A program made the position numbers and the translations under genes. From Candidatus Berkelbacteria bacterium (lineage in GTDB: Bacteria; Patescibacteriota; UBA1384; DTJR01), in NCBI GenBank assembly GCA_029865605.1, contig JAOUGE010000005.1, forward strand, positions 338-64,337: a stretch of 64,000 bases of DNA, given 5' to 3'. Shown piece after piece: positions 6,006 through 34,782 of this stretch. How positions within the stretch are numbered: the stretch's first letter is position 1; every line of letters starts with the position of its first letter. The notes beneath the pieces are model-generated. The model saw only the letters and a list, made by a program, of their open reading frames with translations. It searched no databases and had not been told where the DNA came from.

Positions 6006-6413
6006 ATGGATAAAGTTCTCATCTTTTGCGATGGGGGGGCAAGAGGGAATCCGGGTCCGGCGGCAATTGGTGTTGTAATTAAATCACCCGATGGAAAGAC
6101 GGTCAAAGAAATCAGCCGCAAGATCGGCAGGGCTACTAATAATGTTGCCGAATACAAAGCGGTTTTAGCCGCTTTGGGATGGATTTTAGAGAATCAACCG
6201 GCTAATATAATTGAATTTTATTTGGATTCTGAACTTGTAACGCGGCAGCTAAACGGCCAGTACAAGGTCAAAGATACCGATTTGAAGCCGCTTTATTATA
6301 AAATTAGAGAATTGGTTTTTAGCTCGGGCAGGGCAGTGATCTTTAAGCATGTAAGGAGAGAAGAAAATTTGGAAGCAGATAGATTAGTAAATGAGGAACT
6401 CGATCGAGCTTAA
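6006..6413 (+). CDS. ribonuclease H (RNase HI-like)
   Basis: LIFCDGGARGNPGPAAIGVV...NNVAEYKAVLAALGW matches the RNase H DGG(S/A)RGNPGP...E...D core. 135 aa. Confidence 0.65.
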   Translation: MDKVLIFCDGGARGNPGPAAIGVVIKSPDGKTVKEISRKIGRATNNVAEYKAVLAALGWILENQPANIIEFYLDSELVTRQLNGQYKVKDTDLKPLYYKIRELVFSSGRAVIFKHVRREENLEADRLVNEELDRA

Positions 6414-6466: not shown

Positions 6467-6609
6467 TGGTAGCGGGGGTGGGATTTGGTCACAAGTCGGC
6501 GCGCATATTTTTCTTAAAGAGTGTGCCGCTCGCGACCCCGCCTCATCCCGCCGTGGCGGGACTCCGGCCTTCAAATCCCATCGCTCCCAATTCTCGGCTT
6601 ACGCCGATC
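6467..6609 (-). repeat. conserved structured element after a tRNA 3' end, copy 1 (appended to tRNA-Met)
   Basis: Minus-strand order is antisense T-loop segment GGGATTTGAAGGCCGG, hairpin CCCGCC-ACG-GCGGG, GAGGCGGGGTCGCGA, second hairpin, TTGTGACC, then a 21-nt copy of the tRNA T-loop-to-CCA end (CAAATCCCACCCCCGCTACCA). Confidence 0.8.
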
Positions 6610-6686
<77 letters not shown>

Positions 6687-7464: not shown

Positions 7465-7541
7465 GGCAACGTAGCTCAGTTGGTTAGAGCGAGGGAATCA
7501 TAACCCCTAGGTCACAGGTTCGAATCCTGTCGTTGCCACCA
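7465..7541 (+). tRNA. tRNA with anticodon CAT (Met or Ile2/lysidine)
   Basis: GGCAACG acceptor paired with CGTTGCC, D-arm GCTCAGTTGGTTAGAGC, anticodon loop ATCATAA, T-arm ACAGGTTCGAATCCTGT, encoded ACCA. Confidence 0.8.
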
Positions 7542-7659
7542 GGTTGTTTTTTGGTGAAACGGCGGATTCGAAGGCCGCAGCGAGCGAAGGCGAGCGAGGC
7601 GGGGTCGATTGCCGCGCCAGCAGGTGCGGACAAGTGACCGAATCCTGTCGTTGCCACCA
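7542..7659 (+). repeat. conserved structured element after a tRNA 3' end, copy 2
   Basis: Starts GGTTGTTTTTTGGTGAAACGGCGGATTCGAAGGCCG. Contains GAGGCGGGGTCG, hairpin CCGCGCC-AGCA-GGTGCGG and AAGTGACC. Ends with a 25-nt repeat CGAATCCTGTCGTTGCCACCAGGTT of the tRNA 3' end. Confidence 0.8.
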
Positions 7660-16823: not shown

Positions 16824-18335
16824 ATGGAGAAACTCTCAATTATTAAGTCGGTTGTTGCAGTCGGGCTCGAGCCACAGGTAGTTGATGTTGAAGTTGATGT
16901 TGGAGCGGGACTACCGGGGTTGACGATTGTCGGCCTTCCCGACAAAGCAGTTGAGGAATCGAAGGAACGAGTCCGCCTCGCTTTGAAAAATTCCGGTTTT
17001 GACTTCCCGCAAAAGAAAATTGTCGTCAACCTTGCTCCGGCTGATGTCAAAAAGGAAGGCCCGGCTTATGATTTGCCGATTGCCGTTGGAACTTTAATTG
17101 CCTCAGGCATCATCAAACCAAAAGAAATTAATAAAACCATCTTTATCGGCGAGCTCTCATTAAGCGGGAAACTGCGGGCAACGAAAGGGATAATTCAGGC
17201 CTCAATTCTAGCGAAAAAAAAGAACCTTTCCCTTGTCTGCCCGATTCAGAACCAAGCCGAAGCCAATTTGATCTCGGGTATAGAAATCCTAGCTGCCGAA
17301 GATCTTAAATCAATGGTTGCGGCATTGCTTGCTGATGATACCAGGATTTTTTCAAAAACCACCGGCGTTAAAGATGTCCCAGAGCCCGACTACGGCGATT
17401 ATGATTTTCAAAATGTTGTTGGCCAGTCTCAAGCCAAGAGAGCGCTTGAGATCGCCGCCGCCGGCGGCCACAACGTGCTTTTGTCCGGCCCGCCCGGCGG
17501 CGGCAAAACACTCTTGTCTCGCAGTATTATCTCGATCCTGCCCCCGCTTGAGGAAGAGGAGCTTTTAGAGGCAACTAAAATTTATTCCGTGGCTGGCCTT
17601 TTAACCGAAGACGAGCCGATTATTATTCGTCGTCCCTTCCGCTCCCCCCATCACACAACCTCCGCCGTGGCAATAATCGGCGGCGGGACATATCCCAAGC
17701 CCGGTGAAATATCATTGGCCAACAAAGGTGTTTTATTTTTAGATGAATTCCCCGAATTTCCCCGCTCGGTTTTGGAAGCCTTGCGCCAGCCGCTTGAAGA
17801 TAAAGTGGTTACTGTTAGCCGGGCCCAAGCCACCTATCGTTTTCCGGCTGACTTTATTTTGGTCGCGGCTAAAAATCCCTGCCCCTGCGGTTTTCTGGGA
17901 GACGAGCATCACGAGTGTAAGTGTCCGGCGACCCAAATTCTAAGCTACGATCGTCGCGTTTCCGGCCCGCTTCTAGACAGGATAGATCTTTATCTTAATG
18001 TCGGGAAAATCCCTCTCAAGAAAATCCAGTCCTCACAAAAAGAAGAAAAATCAAGTGAGGTAAAAAAGAGAGTTATCAAAGCGAGGAGACTGCAAATCTC
18101 AAGGCAGGGGAAGCTAAATAGCCAGCTTAGTAAAAAGGATCTTAATAGATTCGCCGCTCTCAACGAAGAACAGGAAGAATTTTTGGAGGGAGCGGCAGAG
18201 AAGCTTGGCCTTTCGATGCGCGGTTTTATCAAAGTTTTAAGAATTTCAAGGACTATTGCCGACCTTGCCCAAAGCAAAAATGTTTTAATGGAGCATTTGG
18301 CTGAAGCTCTCCAATATCGCCAGCGCGAGCAGTAA
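16824..18335 (+). CDS. comM: Mg-chelatase-like AAA+ ATPase ComM/YifB family
   Basis: N-terminal Lon-like domain, Walker A GPPGGGKT, Walker B FLDEFPEF, C-terminal ChlI-like region. 503 aa. Confidence 0.88.
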   Translation: MEKLSIIKSVVAVGLEPQVVDVEVDVGAGLPGLTIVGLPDKAVEESKERVRLALKNSGFDFPQKKIVVNLAPADVKKEGPAYDLPIAVGTLIASGIIKPKEINKTIFIGELSLSGKLRATKGIIQASILAKKKNLSLVCPIQNQAEANLISGIEILAAEDLKSMVAALLADDTRIFSKTTGVKDVPEPDYGDYDFQNVVGQSQAKRALEIAAAGGHNVLLSGPPGGGKTLLSRSIISILPPLEEEELLEATKIYSVAGLLTEDEPIIIRRPFRSPHHTTSAVAIIGGGTYPKPGEISLANKGVLFLDEFPEFPRSVLEALRQPLEDKVVTVSRAQATYRFPADFILVAAKNPCPCGFLGDEHHECKCPATQILSYDRRVSGPLLDRIDLYLNVGKIPLKKIQSSQKEEKSSEVKKRVIKARRLQISRQGKLNSQLSKKDLNRFAALNEEQEEFLEGAAEKLGLSMRGFIKVLRISRTIADLAQSKNVLMEHLAEALQYRQREQ

Positions 18336-23825: not shown

Positions 23826-23900
23826 GCGGGTGTCGTATAGCGGTTATTACACGTGCTTGCCAAGCACGAGAGGGCGGTTCAATTCCGCTCACCCGCTCCA
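23826..23900 (+). tRNA. tRNA-Gly (GCC)
   Basis: GCGGGTG paired with CACCCGC, anticodon loop CTTGCCAAG, T-arm GGCGGTTCAATTCCGCT, encoded TCCA. Confidence 0.85.
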
Positions 23901-24039
23901 ACGAGATGGCCTTTAGGCCATTTTTCGTTGGAGCACCCTGCCGAGAATTGAAGGCCGGACCCCGCCACGGCGGGGGAGGCGGGGTCGCGAAATTTACCAG
24001 CAGGTAAATATTTGTGACCAATTCCGCTCACCCGCTCCA
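23901..24039 (+). repeat. conserved structured element after a tRNA 3' end, copy 3
   Basis: Hairpin plus T-tract ATGGCC-TTTA-GGCCATTTTTCG, then GAGAATTGAAGGCCGG (antisense Gly T-loop), CCCCGCC-ACG-GCGGGGG, GAGGCGGGGTCGCGA, AAATTTACC-AGCA-GGTAAATATT, TGTGACC, and a 21-nt repeat CAATTCCGCTCACCCGCTCCA. Confidence 0.85.
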
Positions 24040-27072: not shown

Positions 27073-27167
27073 GGGCAAGTGGTGAAATGGTATACACGCT
27101 AGCTTCAGGAGCTAGTGACCGCAAGGCCGTGGCTTCGCGAGGGTGGAACTCGCGAAAATACCTTGTA
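27073..27167 (+). pseudogene. tRNA-Leu-like pseudogene (degenerate T-loop and acceptor 3' strand)
   Basis: The 5' two-thirds is closely similar to the tRNA-Leu genes here (D-arm GTGGTGAAATGGTATACAC, anticodon loop TTCAGGA). The T-loop reads GGTGGAA and the 3' strand cannot pair with the 5' acceptor strand. Confidence 0.4.
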
Positions 27168-27258: not shown

Positions 27259-27341
27259 TCTATAATTTCGAATCCGCAACATTAGTTTTTCGTTCCACCC
27301 GAAAAACGCTTGCCCACCAGAATTAAACTTTTAACTGATTT

Positions 27342-28178: not shown

Positions 28179-28282
28179 ATTCTGTATCTTGTATTTTGTA
28201 TCAGGTATCTAGTATTGAACGGTGAATACATGATACATGCTACTTGATACATGATACTTTTTCTTGTACAATCTAACCTGAT

Positions 28283-28368
28283 GCCGAGGTGGTGGAATTG
28301 GTATACACGATAGCTTGAGGAGCTATGCTCGCAAGAGCGTGCAGGTTCGAGTCCTGTCCTCGGCACCA
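28283..28368 (+). tRNA. tRNA-Leu (GAG), type II
   Basis: GCCGAGG paired with CCTCGGC, anticodon loop CTTGAGGA, variable arm, T-arm CAGGTTCGAGTCCTG, ACCA. Confidence 0.85.
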
Positions 28369-28523
28369 AGCAGAACTGCCCTTGTGGCAGTTTTTTGCTT
28401 GGTGCCCCGTGGACTCGAAGGCCGGACCTCGCCACGGCGGGGGTTCGAGGGGTGGCACCTGAGAAGGGTCGCGAGGCCCGCCAGCAGGCGGGAACTTGTG
28501 ACCGAGTCCTGTCCTCGGCACCA
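28369..28523 (+). repeat. conserved structured element after a tRNA 3' end, copy 4
   Basis: Hairpin plus T-tract ACTGCC-CTTG-TGGCAGTTTTTTG, then GGACTCGAAGGCCGG (antisense T-loop), CTCGCC-ACG-GCGGGG, a variant core with an insert (GAGG...GGGTCGCGA), CCCGCC-AGCA-GGCGGG, CTTGTGACC, and a 21-nt repeat CGAGTCCTGTCCTCGGCACCA. Confidence 0.85.
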
Positions 28524-28528
28524 CAAAG

Positions 28529-28552
28529 ATCCCGCTTTAGCGGGGTTTTTCT
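28529..28552 (+). terminator. intrinsic terminator after element copy 4
   Basis: CCCGC-TTTA-GCGGG followed by GTTTTTC. Confidence 0.6.
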
Positions 28553-28616
28553 ATGTATTAGGGTTGAAAAATTTTGTGAAAAAAGCTAAAATTACTCCAG
28601 AAGGTCGATAACTTAA

Positions 28617-28868
28617 ATGGAGATGAATATGGCAGACACAAAAATTGGTGTGATAACACACTACTTTGACAAAATTGGGGTTGGGATCATCAAGCTTGAG
28701 GCGCCGCTAAAGAAAGGCGAAACAATTAAGATTGGCGAGGTGGAACAAGTAGTTGATTCAATGCAGGTTGACCATAAGGATATTGATGAAGGCCAACCGG
28801 GTCAGGAAGTCGGCGTCAAAGTCAGCGCCAAGGTTCGCGAAGGCGAGGAAGTTTATAAGGTAGAGTAG
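28617..28868 (+). CDS. small beta-barrel protein resembling EF-Tu/IF2 domain 2 (function unknown)
   Basis: 83 aa. KIGVITHYFDKIGVGIIKLEAPLKKGETIKIGE...VGVKV resembles a translation-factor beta-barrel domain. Weak. Confidence 0.3.
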   Translation: MEMNMADTKIGVITHYFDKIGVGIIKLEAPLKKGETIKIGEVEQVVDSMQVDHKDIDEGQPGQEVGVKVSAKVREGEEVYKVE

Positions 28869-28930
28869 GGGGCGGCTAGCTTGGGCTAGAAGCTCATCGG
28901 CCTTTGGCTGACAGCGGGATTTTTAGATGT

Positions 28931-29005
28931 GGGCGGTTAGCTCAACGGTAGAGCATTTGGTTTACATCCAAGGGGTTAAAGGTTCGAATCCTTTACCGCC
29001 CACCA
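28931..29005 (+). tRNA. tRNA-Val (TAC)
   Basis: GGGCGGT paired with ACCGCCC, anticodon loop TTTACAT, T-arm AAGGTTCGAATCCTT, ACCA. Confidence 0.85.
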
Positions 29006-29030
29006 TCGGCTTGCATGAATGGTTTGAAAC

Positions 29031-29106
29031 GCCGGGGTAGCTCAGTGGTTAGAGCACTGGTCTGAAAAACCAGGTGTCGACAGTTCGATTCTGTCCCCCG
29101 GCACCA
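29031..29106 (+). tRNA. tRNA-Phe (GAA)
   Basis: GCCGGGG paired with CCCCGGC, anticodon stem-loop CTGGT-CTGAAAA-ACCAG, T-arm CGACAGTTCGATTCTGTC, ACCA. Confidence 0.85.
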
Positions 29107-29240
29107 GGCGGAATTGCGAAGCAATTATTTGACTGGTGCGGCGAACCGAGAATCGAAGGCCGGAGCGCGACGGCGCGAGGCGGGGTCGAGCGCAAAATCA
29201 GCAGATTTTGACGGGTGACCGATTCTGTCCCCCGGCACCA
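29107..29240 (+). repeat. conserved structured element after a tRNA 3' end, copy 5 (after tRNA-Phe)
   Basis: Hairpin AATTGC-GAA-GCAATT, then GAGAATCGAAGGCCGG (antisense Phe T-loop), CGCG-ACGG-CGCG, GAGGCGGGGTCGAGCG, CAAAATC-AGCA-GATTTTG, GGGTGACC, and a 21-nt repeat CGATTCTGTCCCCCGGCACCA. Confidence 0.85.
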
Positions 29241-29443
29241 TCGCGTATGTCCTCATCTGCCAGAAAAGGTAGATGTGGAGACGCGATTTGACGGGGGCGG
29301 CAGGTCGATAACCTGAGAACCTGCCGACAAGAATCGAAACGCGCAGGCTCGACGGAGCCGAGCGGGGGTCGCGAGGCCCGCCAGCAGGCGGGAACTTGTG
29401 ACCGATTTCCTGCCTGCCGGCAGGCAGGTGTCCCTCTGCACCA
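29241..29443 (+). repeat. conserved structured element, copy 6, in tandem after copy 5, with a non-cognate tail
   Basis: Contains AGAATCGAA (antisense Phe T-loop again), GAGCGGGGGTCGCGAGGCCCGCC-AGCA-GGCGGGAACTTGTGACC (identical over 36 nt to copy 4). It ends in a palindrome CCTGCCTGCC/GGCAGGCAGG plus GTGTCCCTCTGCACCA, which is not the Phe 3' end. Confidence 0.7.
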
Positions 29444-29469
29444 CTTACCCCGCATGAGCGGGGTTCAAT

Positions 29470-34577: not shown

Positions 34578-34663
34578 GGGCGAGTGGTGGAATGGTATAC
34601 ACGTTGGACTTAAAATCCAATGGTCGCAAGACCATGTGGGTTCGAATCCCACCTCGCCCACCA
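34578..34663 (+). tRNA. tRNA-Leu (TAA), type II
   Basis: GGGCGAG paired with CTCGCCC, anticodon stem-loop TTGGA-CTTAAAA-TCCAA, variable arm, T-arm TGGGTTCGAATCCCA, ACCA. Confidence 0.85.
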
Positions 34664-34782
34664 GGTTGTTTTTTGGTGAACAGGGGGGATTCGAAAGCCG
34701 GACCAGCCCAGGGCTGGGAGACGGGGTCGCACAAAAATTCAGCAGAATTTTATGAGTGACCGAATCCCACCTCGCCCACCAG
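34664..34782 (+). repeat. conserved structured element after a tRNA 3' end, copy 7
   Basis: Starts GGTTGTTTTTTGGTGAA, as copy 2 does. Then GGGGGATTCGAAAGCCGG (antisense T-loop), CAGCC-CAG-GGCTG, GAGACGGGGTCGC, AAAAATTC-AGCA-GAATTTT, GAGTGACC, and a 30-nt repeat CGAATCCCACCTCGCCCACCAGGTTGTTTT. Confidence 0.85.

Follow-up and report, generated by a model that had tools for sequence, protein, structure and literature searches.

Integrases of the class that targets the T-loop of tRNA genes leave the tRNA gene upstream intact and repeat, in direct orientation, its segment between the T-loop and the 3′ end. Repetitive extragenic palindromes (REPs) are single hairpins of 20-40 nt that are not tied to tRNA genes and hold no copies of a target, and IS200/IS605 elements insert without duplication at targets of 4-5 nt. 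The Mauriceville and Varkud retroplasmids of Neurospora reportedly form hybrid cDNAs with tRNA 3′ ends, by means of a plasmid reverse transcriptase (RT) and in copies that include the post-transcriptional CCA, and these are said to be integrated by homologous recombination. In Aciduliprofundum boonei the casposase inserts at the 3′ end of a tRNA gene in a defined orientation, and the target duplication lies beside a "leader" in the T-ψ-C loop (PMC5137440). Here we describe an element of the 3′ flanks of tRNA genes that shares single features with several known systems and fails a defining feature of each. It was analysed in a stretch of 64,000 nucleotides from a Candidatus Berkelbacteria genome (contig JAOUGE010000005.1, positions 338 to 64,337), referred to as the window, and in other Patescibacteria, the bacteria of the candidate phyla radiation (CPR), which have some of the smallest bacterial genomes. 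The element appears to be previously undescribed, being absent from Rfam and unexplained by any family tested, and no description of it was found in the literature searched, its sequence motif included. The reading we prefer, and hold with about even confidence, is that Patescibacteria harbour a non-autonomous mobile element which settles behind tRNA genes, in their 3′ flank, and that selection acts on its single-stranded fold.

Seven copies lie in the 64-kb window, and of its nine tRNA genes six have at least one copy behind them. Six of the seven stand directly behind a tRNA gene of the same strand (Met on the minus strand, Met, Gly, Leu-GAG, Phe and Leu-TAA), and copy 6 stands behind copy 5; tRNA genes were called by ARAGORN and RNA families by Rfam 15. 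A typical copy opens with an imperfect inverted copy of the 3′ end of that tRNA (the anti-strand), which often runs into the tRNA's trailer. A core follows, and the copy closes with a tail, usually exact, that repeats its own tRNA directly, beginning at T-loop position 56/57 (57 in all typical copies) and ending with the tRNA. Tails have a modal length of 18-21 nt; some reach 24-31 nt by taking in trailer bases, or ~50 nt by running on through the terminator, as in copy 3, whose ~50-nt duplicate includes it. The insert between the direct repeats measures ~90-130 nt and holds no open reading frame (ORF). The core consists of the P1 arm, closed by a short covarying helix (GNC/GN′C) and containing G-A-rich internal loops, and of P2, a hairpin of ~17 bp with a bulged A and an A-N-Y-A loop. 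A further helix, P0, is formed by the flanks, anti-strand with tail, and closes a three-way junction with P1 and P2.

An earlier note on the interval 28369-28523 had listed hairpin stems from the window that differ in sequence while remaining complementary, and had taken them for a selected secondary structure that decaying duplicated DNA would not be expected to show. The listed sequences are all present: the P2 stems CCGCGCC/GGTGCGG in copy 2, AAATTTACC/GGTAAATATT in copy 3, CCCGCC/GGCGGG in copies 4 and 6, CAAAATC/GATTTTG in copy 5 and AAAAATTC/GAATTTT in copy 7, each around an AGCA loop, as well as the P1 stems, the GGTC...GACC pairing that lengthens P2 by forming its base, and the bigger AT-rich P2 loop of copy 1 (minus strand, 6478-6579). 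For a wider comparison, 78 copies from the window and other genomes were gathered with a fixed search pattern and assigned a four-helix structure, and the nulls were 500 shuffles and registers slid by 1-3 columns. Paired cells amounted to 89.5% against 70.6% in the shuffled alignments, none of the 500 reaching the observed value, and double-change cells numbered 417 against 136; in the slid registers just 35-44% of cells pair. Both-sided changes occur in 21 of the 29 base pairs. P2 (helix 4) is 97.2% paired with nine covarying pairs, P1 (helix 3) covaries at all four of its pairs, and the middle position of the short helix between the GNC of GCCGGAG and the GN′C of GAGGCG shows all four Watson-Crick pairs (CG 50, AU 14, GC 8, UA 2). 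This helix and P2 are also recovered by RNAalifold alone. The comparison with a shuffled null, made on more copies as the earlier note had proposed, thus supports a selected structure, as do strand specificity and recurrence across Patescibacteria. Some details were amended. The motifs regarded as invariant and single-stranded are in part paired (GNC with GN′C, GGTC with GACC), while the remaining unpaired nucleotides are indeed conserved; and the motif insertion ascribed to copies 4 and 6 is real in copy 4 (22 nt, 28444-28465), whereas copy 6 has a one-base change in GAGGCGGGGTCG.

A covariance model trained on the 78 copies, four of them from the window, finds exactly the seven window copies at 50.8-86.5 bits, the next match scoring 11.8 bits. 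Motif patterns tell the same story, with 5 and 6 matches in the window against 0.00 expected, the pattern GGGTCG-N10-CAGCAG-N10-GTGACC giving six. The reverse strand of true copies scores ~10 bits where the given strand scores 76-87, and outside the positions fixed by the search pattern G·U pairs outnumber A·C pairs 91 to 34; the structure therefore belongs to this strand only. One G·U pair is invariant in 78 of 78 sequences, but it lies inside the pattern-fixed positions. Unpaired nucleotides are conserved at the AAG of the junction, at one bulged G, in the G-A motifs, at the bulged A and in the ANYA loop; they are near-invariant in Saccharibacteria, Paceibacterota, Berkelbacteria, WWE3 and Woesebacteria, and speak for a factor that reads the fold, on RNA or on single-stranded DNA (ssDNA). 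The P1 arm may be a kink-turn (C-stem, 3-nt bulge, tandem sheared G·A pairs): the C-stem GNC/GN′C covaries and G-A/G-A positions flank P1, but the bulge is just 1 nt, and the first G is a C in the CCGCAG variants. Template switching during replication can itself yield stems that look compensatory (PMC8794818), so covariation alone is no proof of selection at the RNA level.

The element recurs far beyond the window. A scan of species-representative genomes gave at least 120 loci, of which at least ~98 are in Patescibacteria, and in the 98 Patescibacteria loci the covariance model located 131 copies; a metagenome scan gave 120 further loci. The lineages with the element are Saccharibacteria, Paceibacterota/Parcubacteria, Kaiser-, Nomura-, Woese- and Berkelbacteria and WWE3. 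One metagenome-assembled genome of candidate division WS2 is also among the genuine matches of the species-representative scan, and the remaining matches are chance hits inside GC-rich coding DNA of Actinobacteria and Pseudomonas. Viral contigs gave no genuine copies, just four chance matches in GC-rich coding DNA, and on this result a phage origin was rejected. Full context was available for 175 distinct copies; a same-strand tRNA gene ends less than 220 nt upstream of 126 of them, and three have a tRNA gene on the opposite strand. Among the tRNAs with a copy behind them, 37 different anticodons occur.

The core appears to move between these tRNA genes. For just 12 of 148 tRNA-linked copies does the nearest core in another contig stand behind the same anticodon, and among the 45 copies with a core that matches one in another contig at 95% identity or more, the anticodon is shared in only five. 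Cores that are 100% identical were found behind Ile-GAT and Val-TAC, Thr-GGT and Trp-CCA, and Arg-TCT and Ser-GGA. In 47 pairs of near-identical cores, identity drops to ~0.3-0.45 directly outside the stretch from the junction to GTGACC, and these sharp edges define a unit of 62-66 nt. Identical cores behind different tRNAs, taken together with the sharp edges and with the filled, empty and tandem sites of close relatives, lead us to conclude that the core is what moves and that the flanks derive from the target.

Filled and empty sites point in the same direction. The contigs and loci outside the window with which it was compared carry L-numbers below, and the relatives of the window's tRNA-Leu loci were found through homologues of its NDP-sugar synthase. 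The window and the relatives' contigs, in which the neighbouring protein is 85% identical, carry the same tRNA-Leu(CAG) gene without a difference. In the window the site is empty, with CCA followed by TCTATAATTTCGAATCC; in L121 and L123 an insert of 113 nt, the element plus a 20-nt duplicate, precedes the point where the native flank resumes, and in L122 the 113-nt unit stands twice in tandem. The tRNA-Leu(GAG) site has a copy in the window and in L124, a 74% relative, and none in the 85% and 67% relatives, and the tail in L124 matches its own tRNA, whose sequence differs from that of the window. Behind the orthologous tRNA-Met gene by the sortase gene, the window carries the core of copy 2 and a 79% relative a copy-5-like core with a tail that matches its own tRNA. 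Two copies form a stack behind tRNA-Phe, copy 5 and, further out, the older copy 6 with its decayed tail, and in L100 one element is nested within another.

The two flanks differ in their fidelity to the target. Anti-strands are never perfect, having mismatches, wobbles or a central internal loop, and G·U wobbles occur in their pairing with the tail; most tails are perfect, and they still match the tRNA exactly even where the terminator duplicate beside them has diverged by compensatory changes. Pairing of the anti-strand is stronger with the tRNA end and its unique trailer (mean −23.8 kcal/mol) than with the tail and its flank (−20.1 kcal/mol), the upstream sequence being the better partner in 40 cases against 3 (Wilcoxon p = 1.4e-9); complementarity to the trailer is seen in GCTCCAACGA/TCGTTGGAGC of copy 3 and GGCACCAAGC/GCTTGGTGCC of copy 4. 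A terminator-like hairpin lies between tRNA and anti-strand in 59 of 144 copies (41%) and after the tail in 27 of 144 (19%), as compared with 55 of 591 random 80-nt windows. In those 59 copies the anti-strand is thus a mirror image of the tRNA end across the hairpin. In L131, whose core is copy-5-like, the anti-strand retains the T-loop complement GGAATC of a GATTC-type donor though its own tRNA reads GAGTC, and the junction between target-derived and donor-derived sequence therefore lies within the T-loop complement. Six of 32 tails carry CCA where the gene does not (binomial p 0.01-0.04 at 6-8% background) and the other 26 are without it, which is suggestive of an RNA intermediate in some events and not decisive. 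Taken together, the flanks would seem to be generated from the target at insertion. The idea that the anti-strand serves as a repair template for tRNA 3′ ends was rejected on the mismatches and internal loops in its acceptor region, and an origin of the tail by snap-back copying through the terminator on copy 3, where the sequence after the tail is a direct, not inverted, copy of trailer and terminator.

Copy 4 shows the parts in order, all on the plus strand. Its target, tRNA-Leu(GAG), occupies 28283-28368 with CCA encoded (ARAGORN; Rfam tRNA, 56.4 bits). The trailer at 28369-28399 folds into a terminator-like hairpin, CTGCC-CTTGT-GGCAG followed by a T run, which is native to the tRNA locus, and the empty orthologous site in L125 retains a similar one, AGAGCTGCCCAGGGGCAGTTTTTG. 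These first 31 positions of the interval 28369-28523 lie outside the element. The anti-strand TGGTGCCCCGTGGACTCG (18 nt, 28400-28417), an imperfect inverted tRNA 3′ end identified by sequence, fold and the family-wide pairing test, complements GGCACCA and the trailer bases AGC when the preceding GCT is included, and the junction AAG separates it from the core. The core, GCCGGA...GTGACC at 28421-28503, is the mobile unit with P1 arm, P2 and a nested insertion, as delimited by the covariance-model hit (28410-28512, 50.8 bits) and the comparison of core edges. Within it lie the P1 hairpin CCTCGCC-ACG-GCGGGGG (28427-28443; sequence and covariation), the nested 22-nt hairpin module TTCGAGGGGTGGCACCTGAGAA (28444-28465), which disrupts the GNC/GN′C helix and falls in a 35-nt insertion relative to the model, and the P2 hairpin GGGTCGCGAGGCCCGCC-AGCA-GGCGGGAACTTGTGACC with its bulged A (28466-28503; motif, covariation and RNAalifold). 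The tail GAGTCCTGTCCTCGGCACCA (28504-28523) is by repeat comparison an exact 20-nt copy of positions 57-76 of tRNA-Leu(GAG) and pairs in the fold with the anti-strand (P0 and outer stem). A second terminator-like hairpin, CCCGC-TTTA-GCGGG with a T run, follows at 28524-28550 by sequence. In a fold of 28369-28523 by itself (z-score −3.2), the terminator hairpin and P2 appear together with two stems, UGGUGCC/GGCACCA on the outside and GGACUCG/CGAGUCC within.

No dedicated protein was found with the element in the window or the 98 loci. All-against-all clustering of ORFs in the 98 loci gave no cluster present in more than 11 of them, family searches identified none of the clusters, and one top cluster appears to be a reading frame across the element itself. 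Pfam scans of 40 window proteins returned housekeeping genes only, with no transposase, integrase or RT. At gathering score Rfam finds only tRNAs in the whole window, and a scan of 28260-29460 at E≤10 gave only chance-level matches overlapping copies: rnk_pseudo reached 17.1 bits where the gathering score is 55 (E 5.8), and microRNA precursors, on the palindrome that copy 6 has in its tail, reached 17-22 bits where it is 82-168. Hammerhead, hairpin, HDV and twister ribozymes, T-box, tmRNA, SRP and Y-RNA-like RNAs were compared by eye and fail on core motifs or context. A T-loop intron and a split or permuted tRNA were also rejected, the upstream tRNA being complete and the element far too small for a group I intron. 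The sole paper found on insertions in Patescibacteria tRNAs places group I introns in the anticodon loop and reports no group II introns in these bacteria (PMC13011429). These group I introns have a core of more than 200 nt and sit in that loop, whereas the element has a core of 62-66 nt after an intact tRNA and gives no Rfam intron match.

Among the mobile elements, casposons resemble it in insertion at the tRNA 3′ end, in a direct duplication that starts next to the T-ψ-C loop and in a defined orientation. They are, however, large, with terminal inverted repeats, Cas1, PolB and other genes and a fixed 15-bp duplication that overlaps the tRNA by only 5 bp (PMC5137440), Cas1-type integration at large being marked by a duplication of 14-15 bp, whereas here an ORF-less insert of ~90-130 nt is joined to a duplication that starts within the T-loop and is at least 18-21 nt long, and to an inverted copy of the target. 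MITEs (miniature inverted-repeat transposable elements) such as Correia, RUP and ERIC are likewise small, non-autonomous, multi-copy, intergenic and foldable, with presence/absence polymorphism. The target-site duplication expected of a MITE is also seen, from position 57 over 18-21 nt and in a filled/empty pair, though it is long and variable. Unlike a MITE, the element has no terminal inverted repeats of its own, since the paired flanks derive from the target and identity collapses outside GCC...GTGACC; the tRNA-3′-end target is extremely specific, and the inverted target copy and the covarying three-way junction are additional. No related autonomous insertion sequence turned up in the window, the 98 loci or the viral contigs. 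With REPs, their mosaic arrays (BIMEs) and associated RAYT transposases, and with IS200/IS605, it has in common that it is short, protein-less and multi-copy, with an imperfect hairpin that is conserved on one strand and would be read as ssDNA by a trans-acting enzyme, and a strand-specific orientation, but it differs in its 18-21-nt duplication and in that no HUH/Y1 transposase was found in the window or the 98 loci. As in the retroplasmid hybrids, a mobile sequence would be linked to the copied 3′ end of a tRNA, and this homology would let it into the genome at the tRNA gene; here, in contrast to retroplasmids and other retroelements, no RT was found in the window or the 98 loci, the sole related match being an RNase H-like gene at 6006-6413, and only 6 of 32 tails have a CCA that the gene lacks. 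Template-switch quasipalindromes, finally, are reverse-complement copies made in one event and could give rise to the anti-strand across the terminator hairpin (PMC8794818), but template switching is a mutational process that alone does not explain how a conserved core is carried to new tRNA genes.

The route by which the element would propagate may be pictured as copy-choice. A nascent strand would fold back at the trailer or terminator hairpin and copy the tRNA end backwards to the T-loop, yielding the anti-strand; at the conserved complement of the T-loop it would then change template to a donor core, and a switch back at the T-loop would re-copy the tRNA end as the tail. We favour this scheme because it fits the fixed 56/57 junction, the reach of the anti-strand to T54, the complementarity to the trailer and the duplicated terminators, as well as the lack of an enzyme gene and the restriction to genes that bear a T-loop, and template switching is documented to create hairpins (PMC8794818). 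Staggered cuts anchored at the T-loop (T-ψ-C) by a trans-acting integrase, as with casposases, would be an alternative, which leaves the anti-strand unexplained; some CPR enzyme that reads the three-way junction could provide another route of propagation besides copy-choice. Between genomes the copies could spread through homologous recombination in which tRNA gene and tail act as the two arms. The insertion in L121, with a foreign trailer on its upstream side, GGTAGTTTTTT (resembling those of copies 2 and 7), and the native flank after the tail, fits such arms. The fold would be conserved since the single-stranded form, be it top-strand ssDNA, read-through RNA or both, must be recognised or must fold for propagation. 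The choice offered by the earlier note, a functional RNA or an ssDNA hairpin for a transposase or recombinase, is supported as such, and the evidence for mobility tips it tentatively towards the ssDNA option.

Several points weigh against a mobile element. Neither among the window proteins nor in the 98 loci or the viral contigs was a transposase, integrase or RT found near any copy, or an autonomous parent. The conserved unpaired nucleotides and the persistence in very small genomes would, judged from sequence, fit a functional RNA or ribonucleoprotein (RNP) at least as well. Copying at birth explains the imperfect anti-strands only with extra assumptions, either gene conversion of the tails or selection against perfect antisense beside a tRNA, and copy-choice would need three ordered template switches. 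The empty sites could be precise deletions between direct repeats instead of sites never occupied, and gene conversion from one copy to another could account in part for the way cores are shuffled among tRNAs. These last two possibilities weaken the evidence from filled and empty sites, patchy presence and lineage swaps; they do not touch the identical cores or the sharp edges.

The alternative that survives best is a functional structured non-coding RNA, transcribed by read-through from the tRNA or from a promoter of its own, whose three-way junction, with its G-A-rich, kink-turn-like arm and ANYA hairpin loop, binds a conserved CPR protein and which is possibly mobile as well. We regard it as a tentative possibility. 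The same tentative standing is given to the version in which the closing stem mimics the 3′ end of the neighbouring tRNA and acts in 3′-end maturation, quality control or protection. Such an RNA would account for a strand-specific fold with a G·U bias, for unpaired nucleotides near-invariant across five CPR lineages and for constant co-orientation with the tRNA. The wobbles between anti-strand and tail speak for it too, as do the tails that stay identical to the tRNA next to a diverged terminator duplicate with compensatory changes and the match of the L124 tail to its own, divergent tRNA-Leu(GAG). On the other hand, a terminator-like hairpin between tRNA and element (41% of copies, against only 19% after the tail) is awkward for an RNA that is obligatorily co-transcribed, and the anti-strand complements a unique trailer that plays no part in closing the junction. 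Patchy presence among close relatives, tandem, nested and decayed copies, and identical cores behind unrelated tRNAs are likewise difficult to reconcile with it, and neither an Rfam family match nor a partner protein was identified in the window or the 98 loci. A functional role is plausibly not exclusive of mobility.

An improbable alternative is a guide RNA for a recombinase or nuclease encoded elsewhere, comparable to the IS110 bridge RNA or the ω RNA of TnpB/IscB, with the core as scaffold and the tRNA segments as guides. The architecture is suggestive, as a conserved scaffold is flanked by ~20 nt that match the target in sense and antisense, the tail stands 3′ of the scaffold like an ω RNA guide, and the tail-side GTGACC, which replaces GGTTC of the tRNA, could tell self from target. 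Yet no recombinase, TnpB or IscB gene adjoins any of the ~230 copies, and no such recombinase or nuclease gene was found adjoining in the window or the 98 loci; the HEARO and ω-type models of Rfam give no match. Each copy, moreover, already stands at the site that its "guides" match, as an integration product would and a programme for elsewhere would not, and the anti-strand also matches the non-conserved trailer. Very improbable, and effectively refuted by the covariation, the cores shared across anticodons and the sharp core edges, are leftover attL/attR scars of integrase islands or prophages with a decayed remnant between them: the direct repeat from T-loop to 3′ end behind an intact tRNA gene is the classic identity block of tRNA integrases, but only ~90-130 nt and neither island nor integrase gene lie between the repeats, the same covarying structure is found in ~230 copies behind 37 different tRNAs, each with matching repeat, and the inverted target copy is left unexplained. 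The one further likeness is that the casposon target also abuts the T-ψ-C loop (PMC5137440).

If the element is mobile, it targets an essential and universal class of genes without damage and without encoding an enzyme, and its target-derived flanks would be an instance, found in nature, of retargeting with the target as template. If it acts as an RNA, it is a widespread candidate for an orphan RNP tied to the 3′ ends of tRNAs, and it comes from a lineage with a little-known RNA biology. It is conceivable, though we rate it short of probable, that it stands for a new class of mobile elements with a protein-less core of ~64 nt and flanks templated by the target, or equivalently for a new RNP with a built-in mimic of the neighbouring tRNA 3′ end. 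Annotation of CPR genomes should recognise it, as tails can resemble partial tRNA genes; its direct repeats promote tandem duplication and deletion beside tRNA genes, and it is a marker for strain-level variation.

The remaining copies of the window follow the plan of copy 4, copy 1 on the minus strand and the others on the plus strand. Copy 1 (6467-6609; 53.8 bits), with the enlarged P2 loop, stands behind tRNA-Met (6610-6686) and has its tail at 6467-6486, its core at 6487-6568 and its anti-strand at 6572-6589. Behind the tRNA-Met gene at 7465-7541, copy 2 (7542-7659; 70.8 bits) begins with the spacer GGTTGTTTTT, followed by anti-strand (7552-7570), core (7574-7639) and tail (7640-7659). Copy 3 (23901-24039; 80.2 bits) follows tRNA-Gly(GCC) (23826-23900), with a terminator hairpin at 23901-23927, the anti-strand at 23929-23950, the core at 23954-24019 and the tail at 24020-24039. 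Copy 5 (29107-29240; 86.5 bits), behind tRNA-Phe (29031-29106), has its anti-strand at 29134-29155, core at 29159-29220 and tail at 29221-29240. The older copy 6 (29329-29443; 72.9 bits) moved downstream with the arrival of copy 5. It has exactly the P2 of copy 4, and its tail is a decayed tRNA-Phe 3′ end broken by a palindrome. Copy 7 (34664-34781; 75.9 bits), behind tRNA-Leu(TAA) (34578-34663), again starts with the spacer GGTTGTTTTT, with anti-strand, core and tail at 34674-34693, 34697-34761 and 34762-34781.

The palindrome in the tail of copy 6, CCTGCCTGCCGGCAGGCAGG at 29411-29430, is perfect over 20 nt and is also found at the edge of an insertion in a near-identical strain (L130, ~300-330). 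That strain, whose sortase is 95% identical, carries at L130:1-400 an insertion of ~290 nt just upstream of a minus-strand tRNA-Met gene, where the window has none; the insertion is flanked by a 22-nt duplicate of the tRNA 5′ end (TACCAGACTGCTCCACCCCGCG), mirroring the 3′-end duplication of the element. At the tRNA-Leu loci, an extra ORF of ~210 aa lies between the NDP-sugar synthase gene and tRNA-Leu(GAG) in L121:4838-5476, L122:1152-1790 and L123:1864-2508, and the window is without it. Downstream of the unoccupied tRNA-Leu(CAG) gene of the window, an orphan piece resembling a tRNA 3′ end (TTCGAATCCGCAAC ... hairpin ... GCTTGCCCACCA) at 27259-27322 is kept in L121 and L123 and may be the tail of a lost element. 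Just upstream of the same intact gene, 27073-27158 is a 5′ fragment like tRNA-Leu that belongs to repeat family D4 and was not called by ARAGORN. It has acceptor, D and anticodon arms, and a hairpin, GCTTCGCGAGGGTGGAACTCGCGAA, takes the place of the T arm. Genes of the window that are relevant to DNA uptake and to RNA/DNA hybrids encode a PilC/T2SSF protein of type IV pilus assembly (65-1060), a prepilin peptidase (1688-2452), a ComM-like Mg-chelatase ATPase (16824-18335) and the RNase H-like protein (6006-6413), whose gene immediately adjoins copy 1; no evidence was found that links them to the element.

Variation within the family is considerable. Type B copies duplicate merely the last few tRNA bases and the trailer. 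Some copies have an extra hairpin with a GAATACNTGGA loop and others a GAAAGTGTACTCAC module, which in several Saccharibacteria and Nomurabacteria copies (L002, L005, L026, L028, L064) lies between the core and the tRNA-like tail, just after GTGACC. In a variant of ~106 nt the loop modules are swapped, P1 carrying a CAGCAG loop and P2 a larger loop of the type GA(A/G)CGACGG (L020:7686-7791, L045:4998-5103, L076:816-921, L101:5760-5865, L021:1391-1496). A smaller related family (...CTTGCGAG-P1-GAGCAC-P2-GTGC...) scores 25-36 bits and is found not beside tRNAs but at the tip of longer stems of unrelated sequence (L004:5625-5698, L119:4724-4795, L026:1765-1834, L051:4152-4226, L035:5266-5339, L102:2318-2393). 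The hairpin module nested in copy 4, TTCG(N)GAGGGTGG(A/C)ACTC(N)CGAA, is present at 28444-28465 and 27131-27158 and in L077:4655-4780 and L131:850-900; it recurs nested inside elements and elsewhere, and looks like a second, still smaller mobile hairpin.

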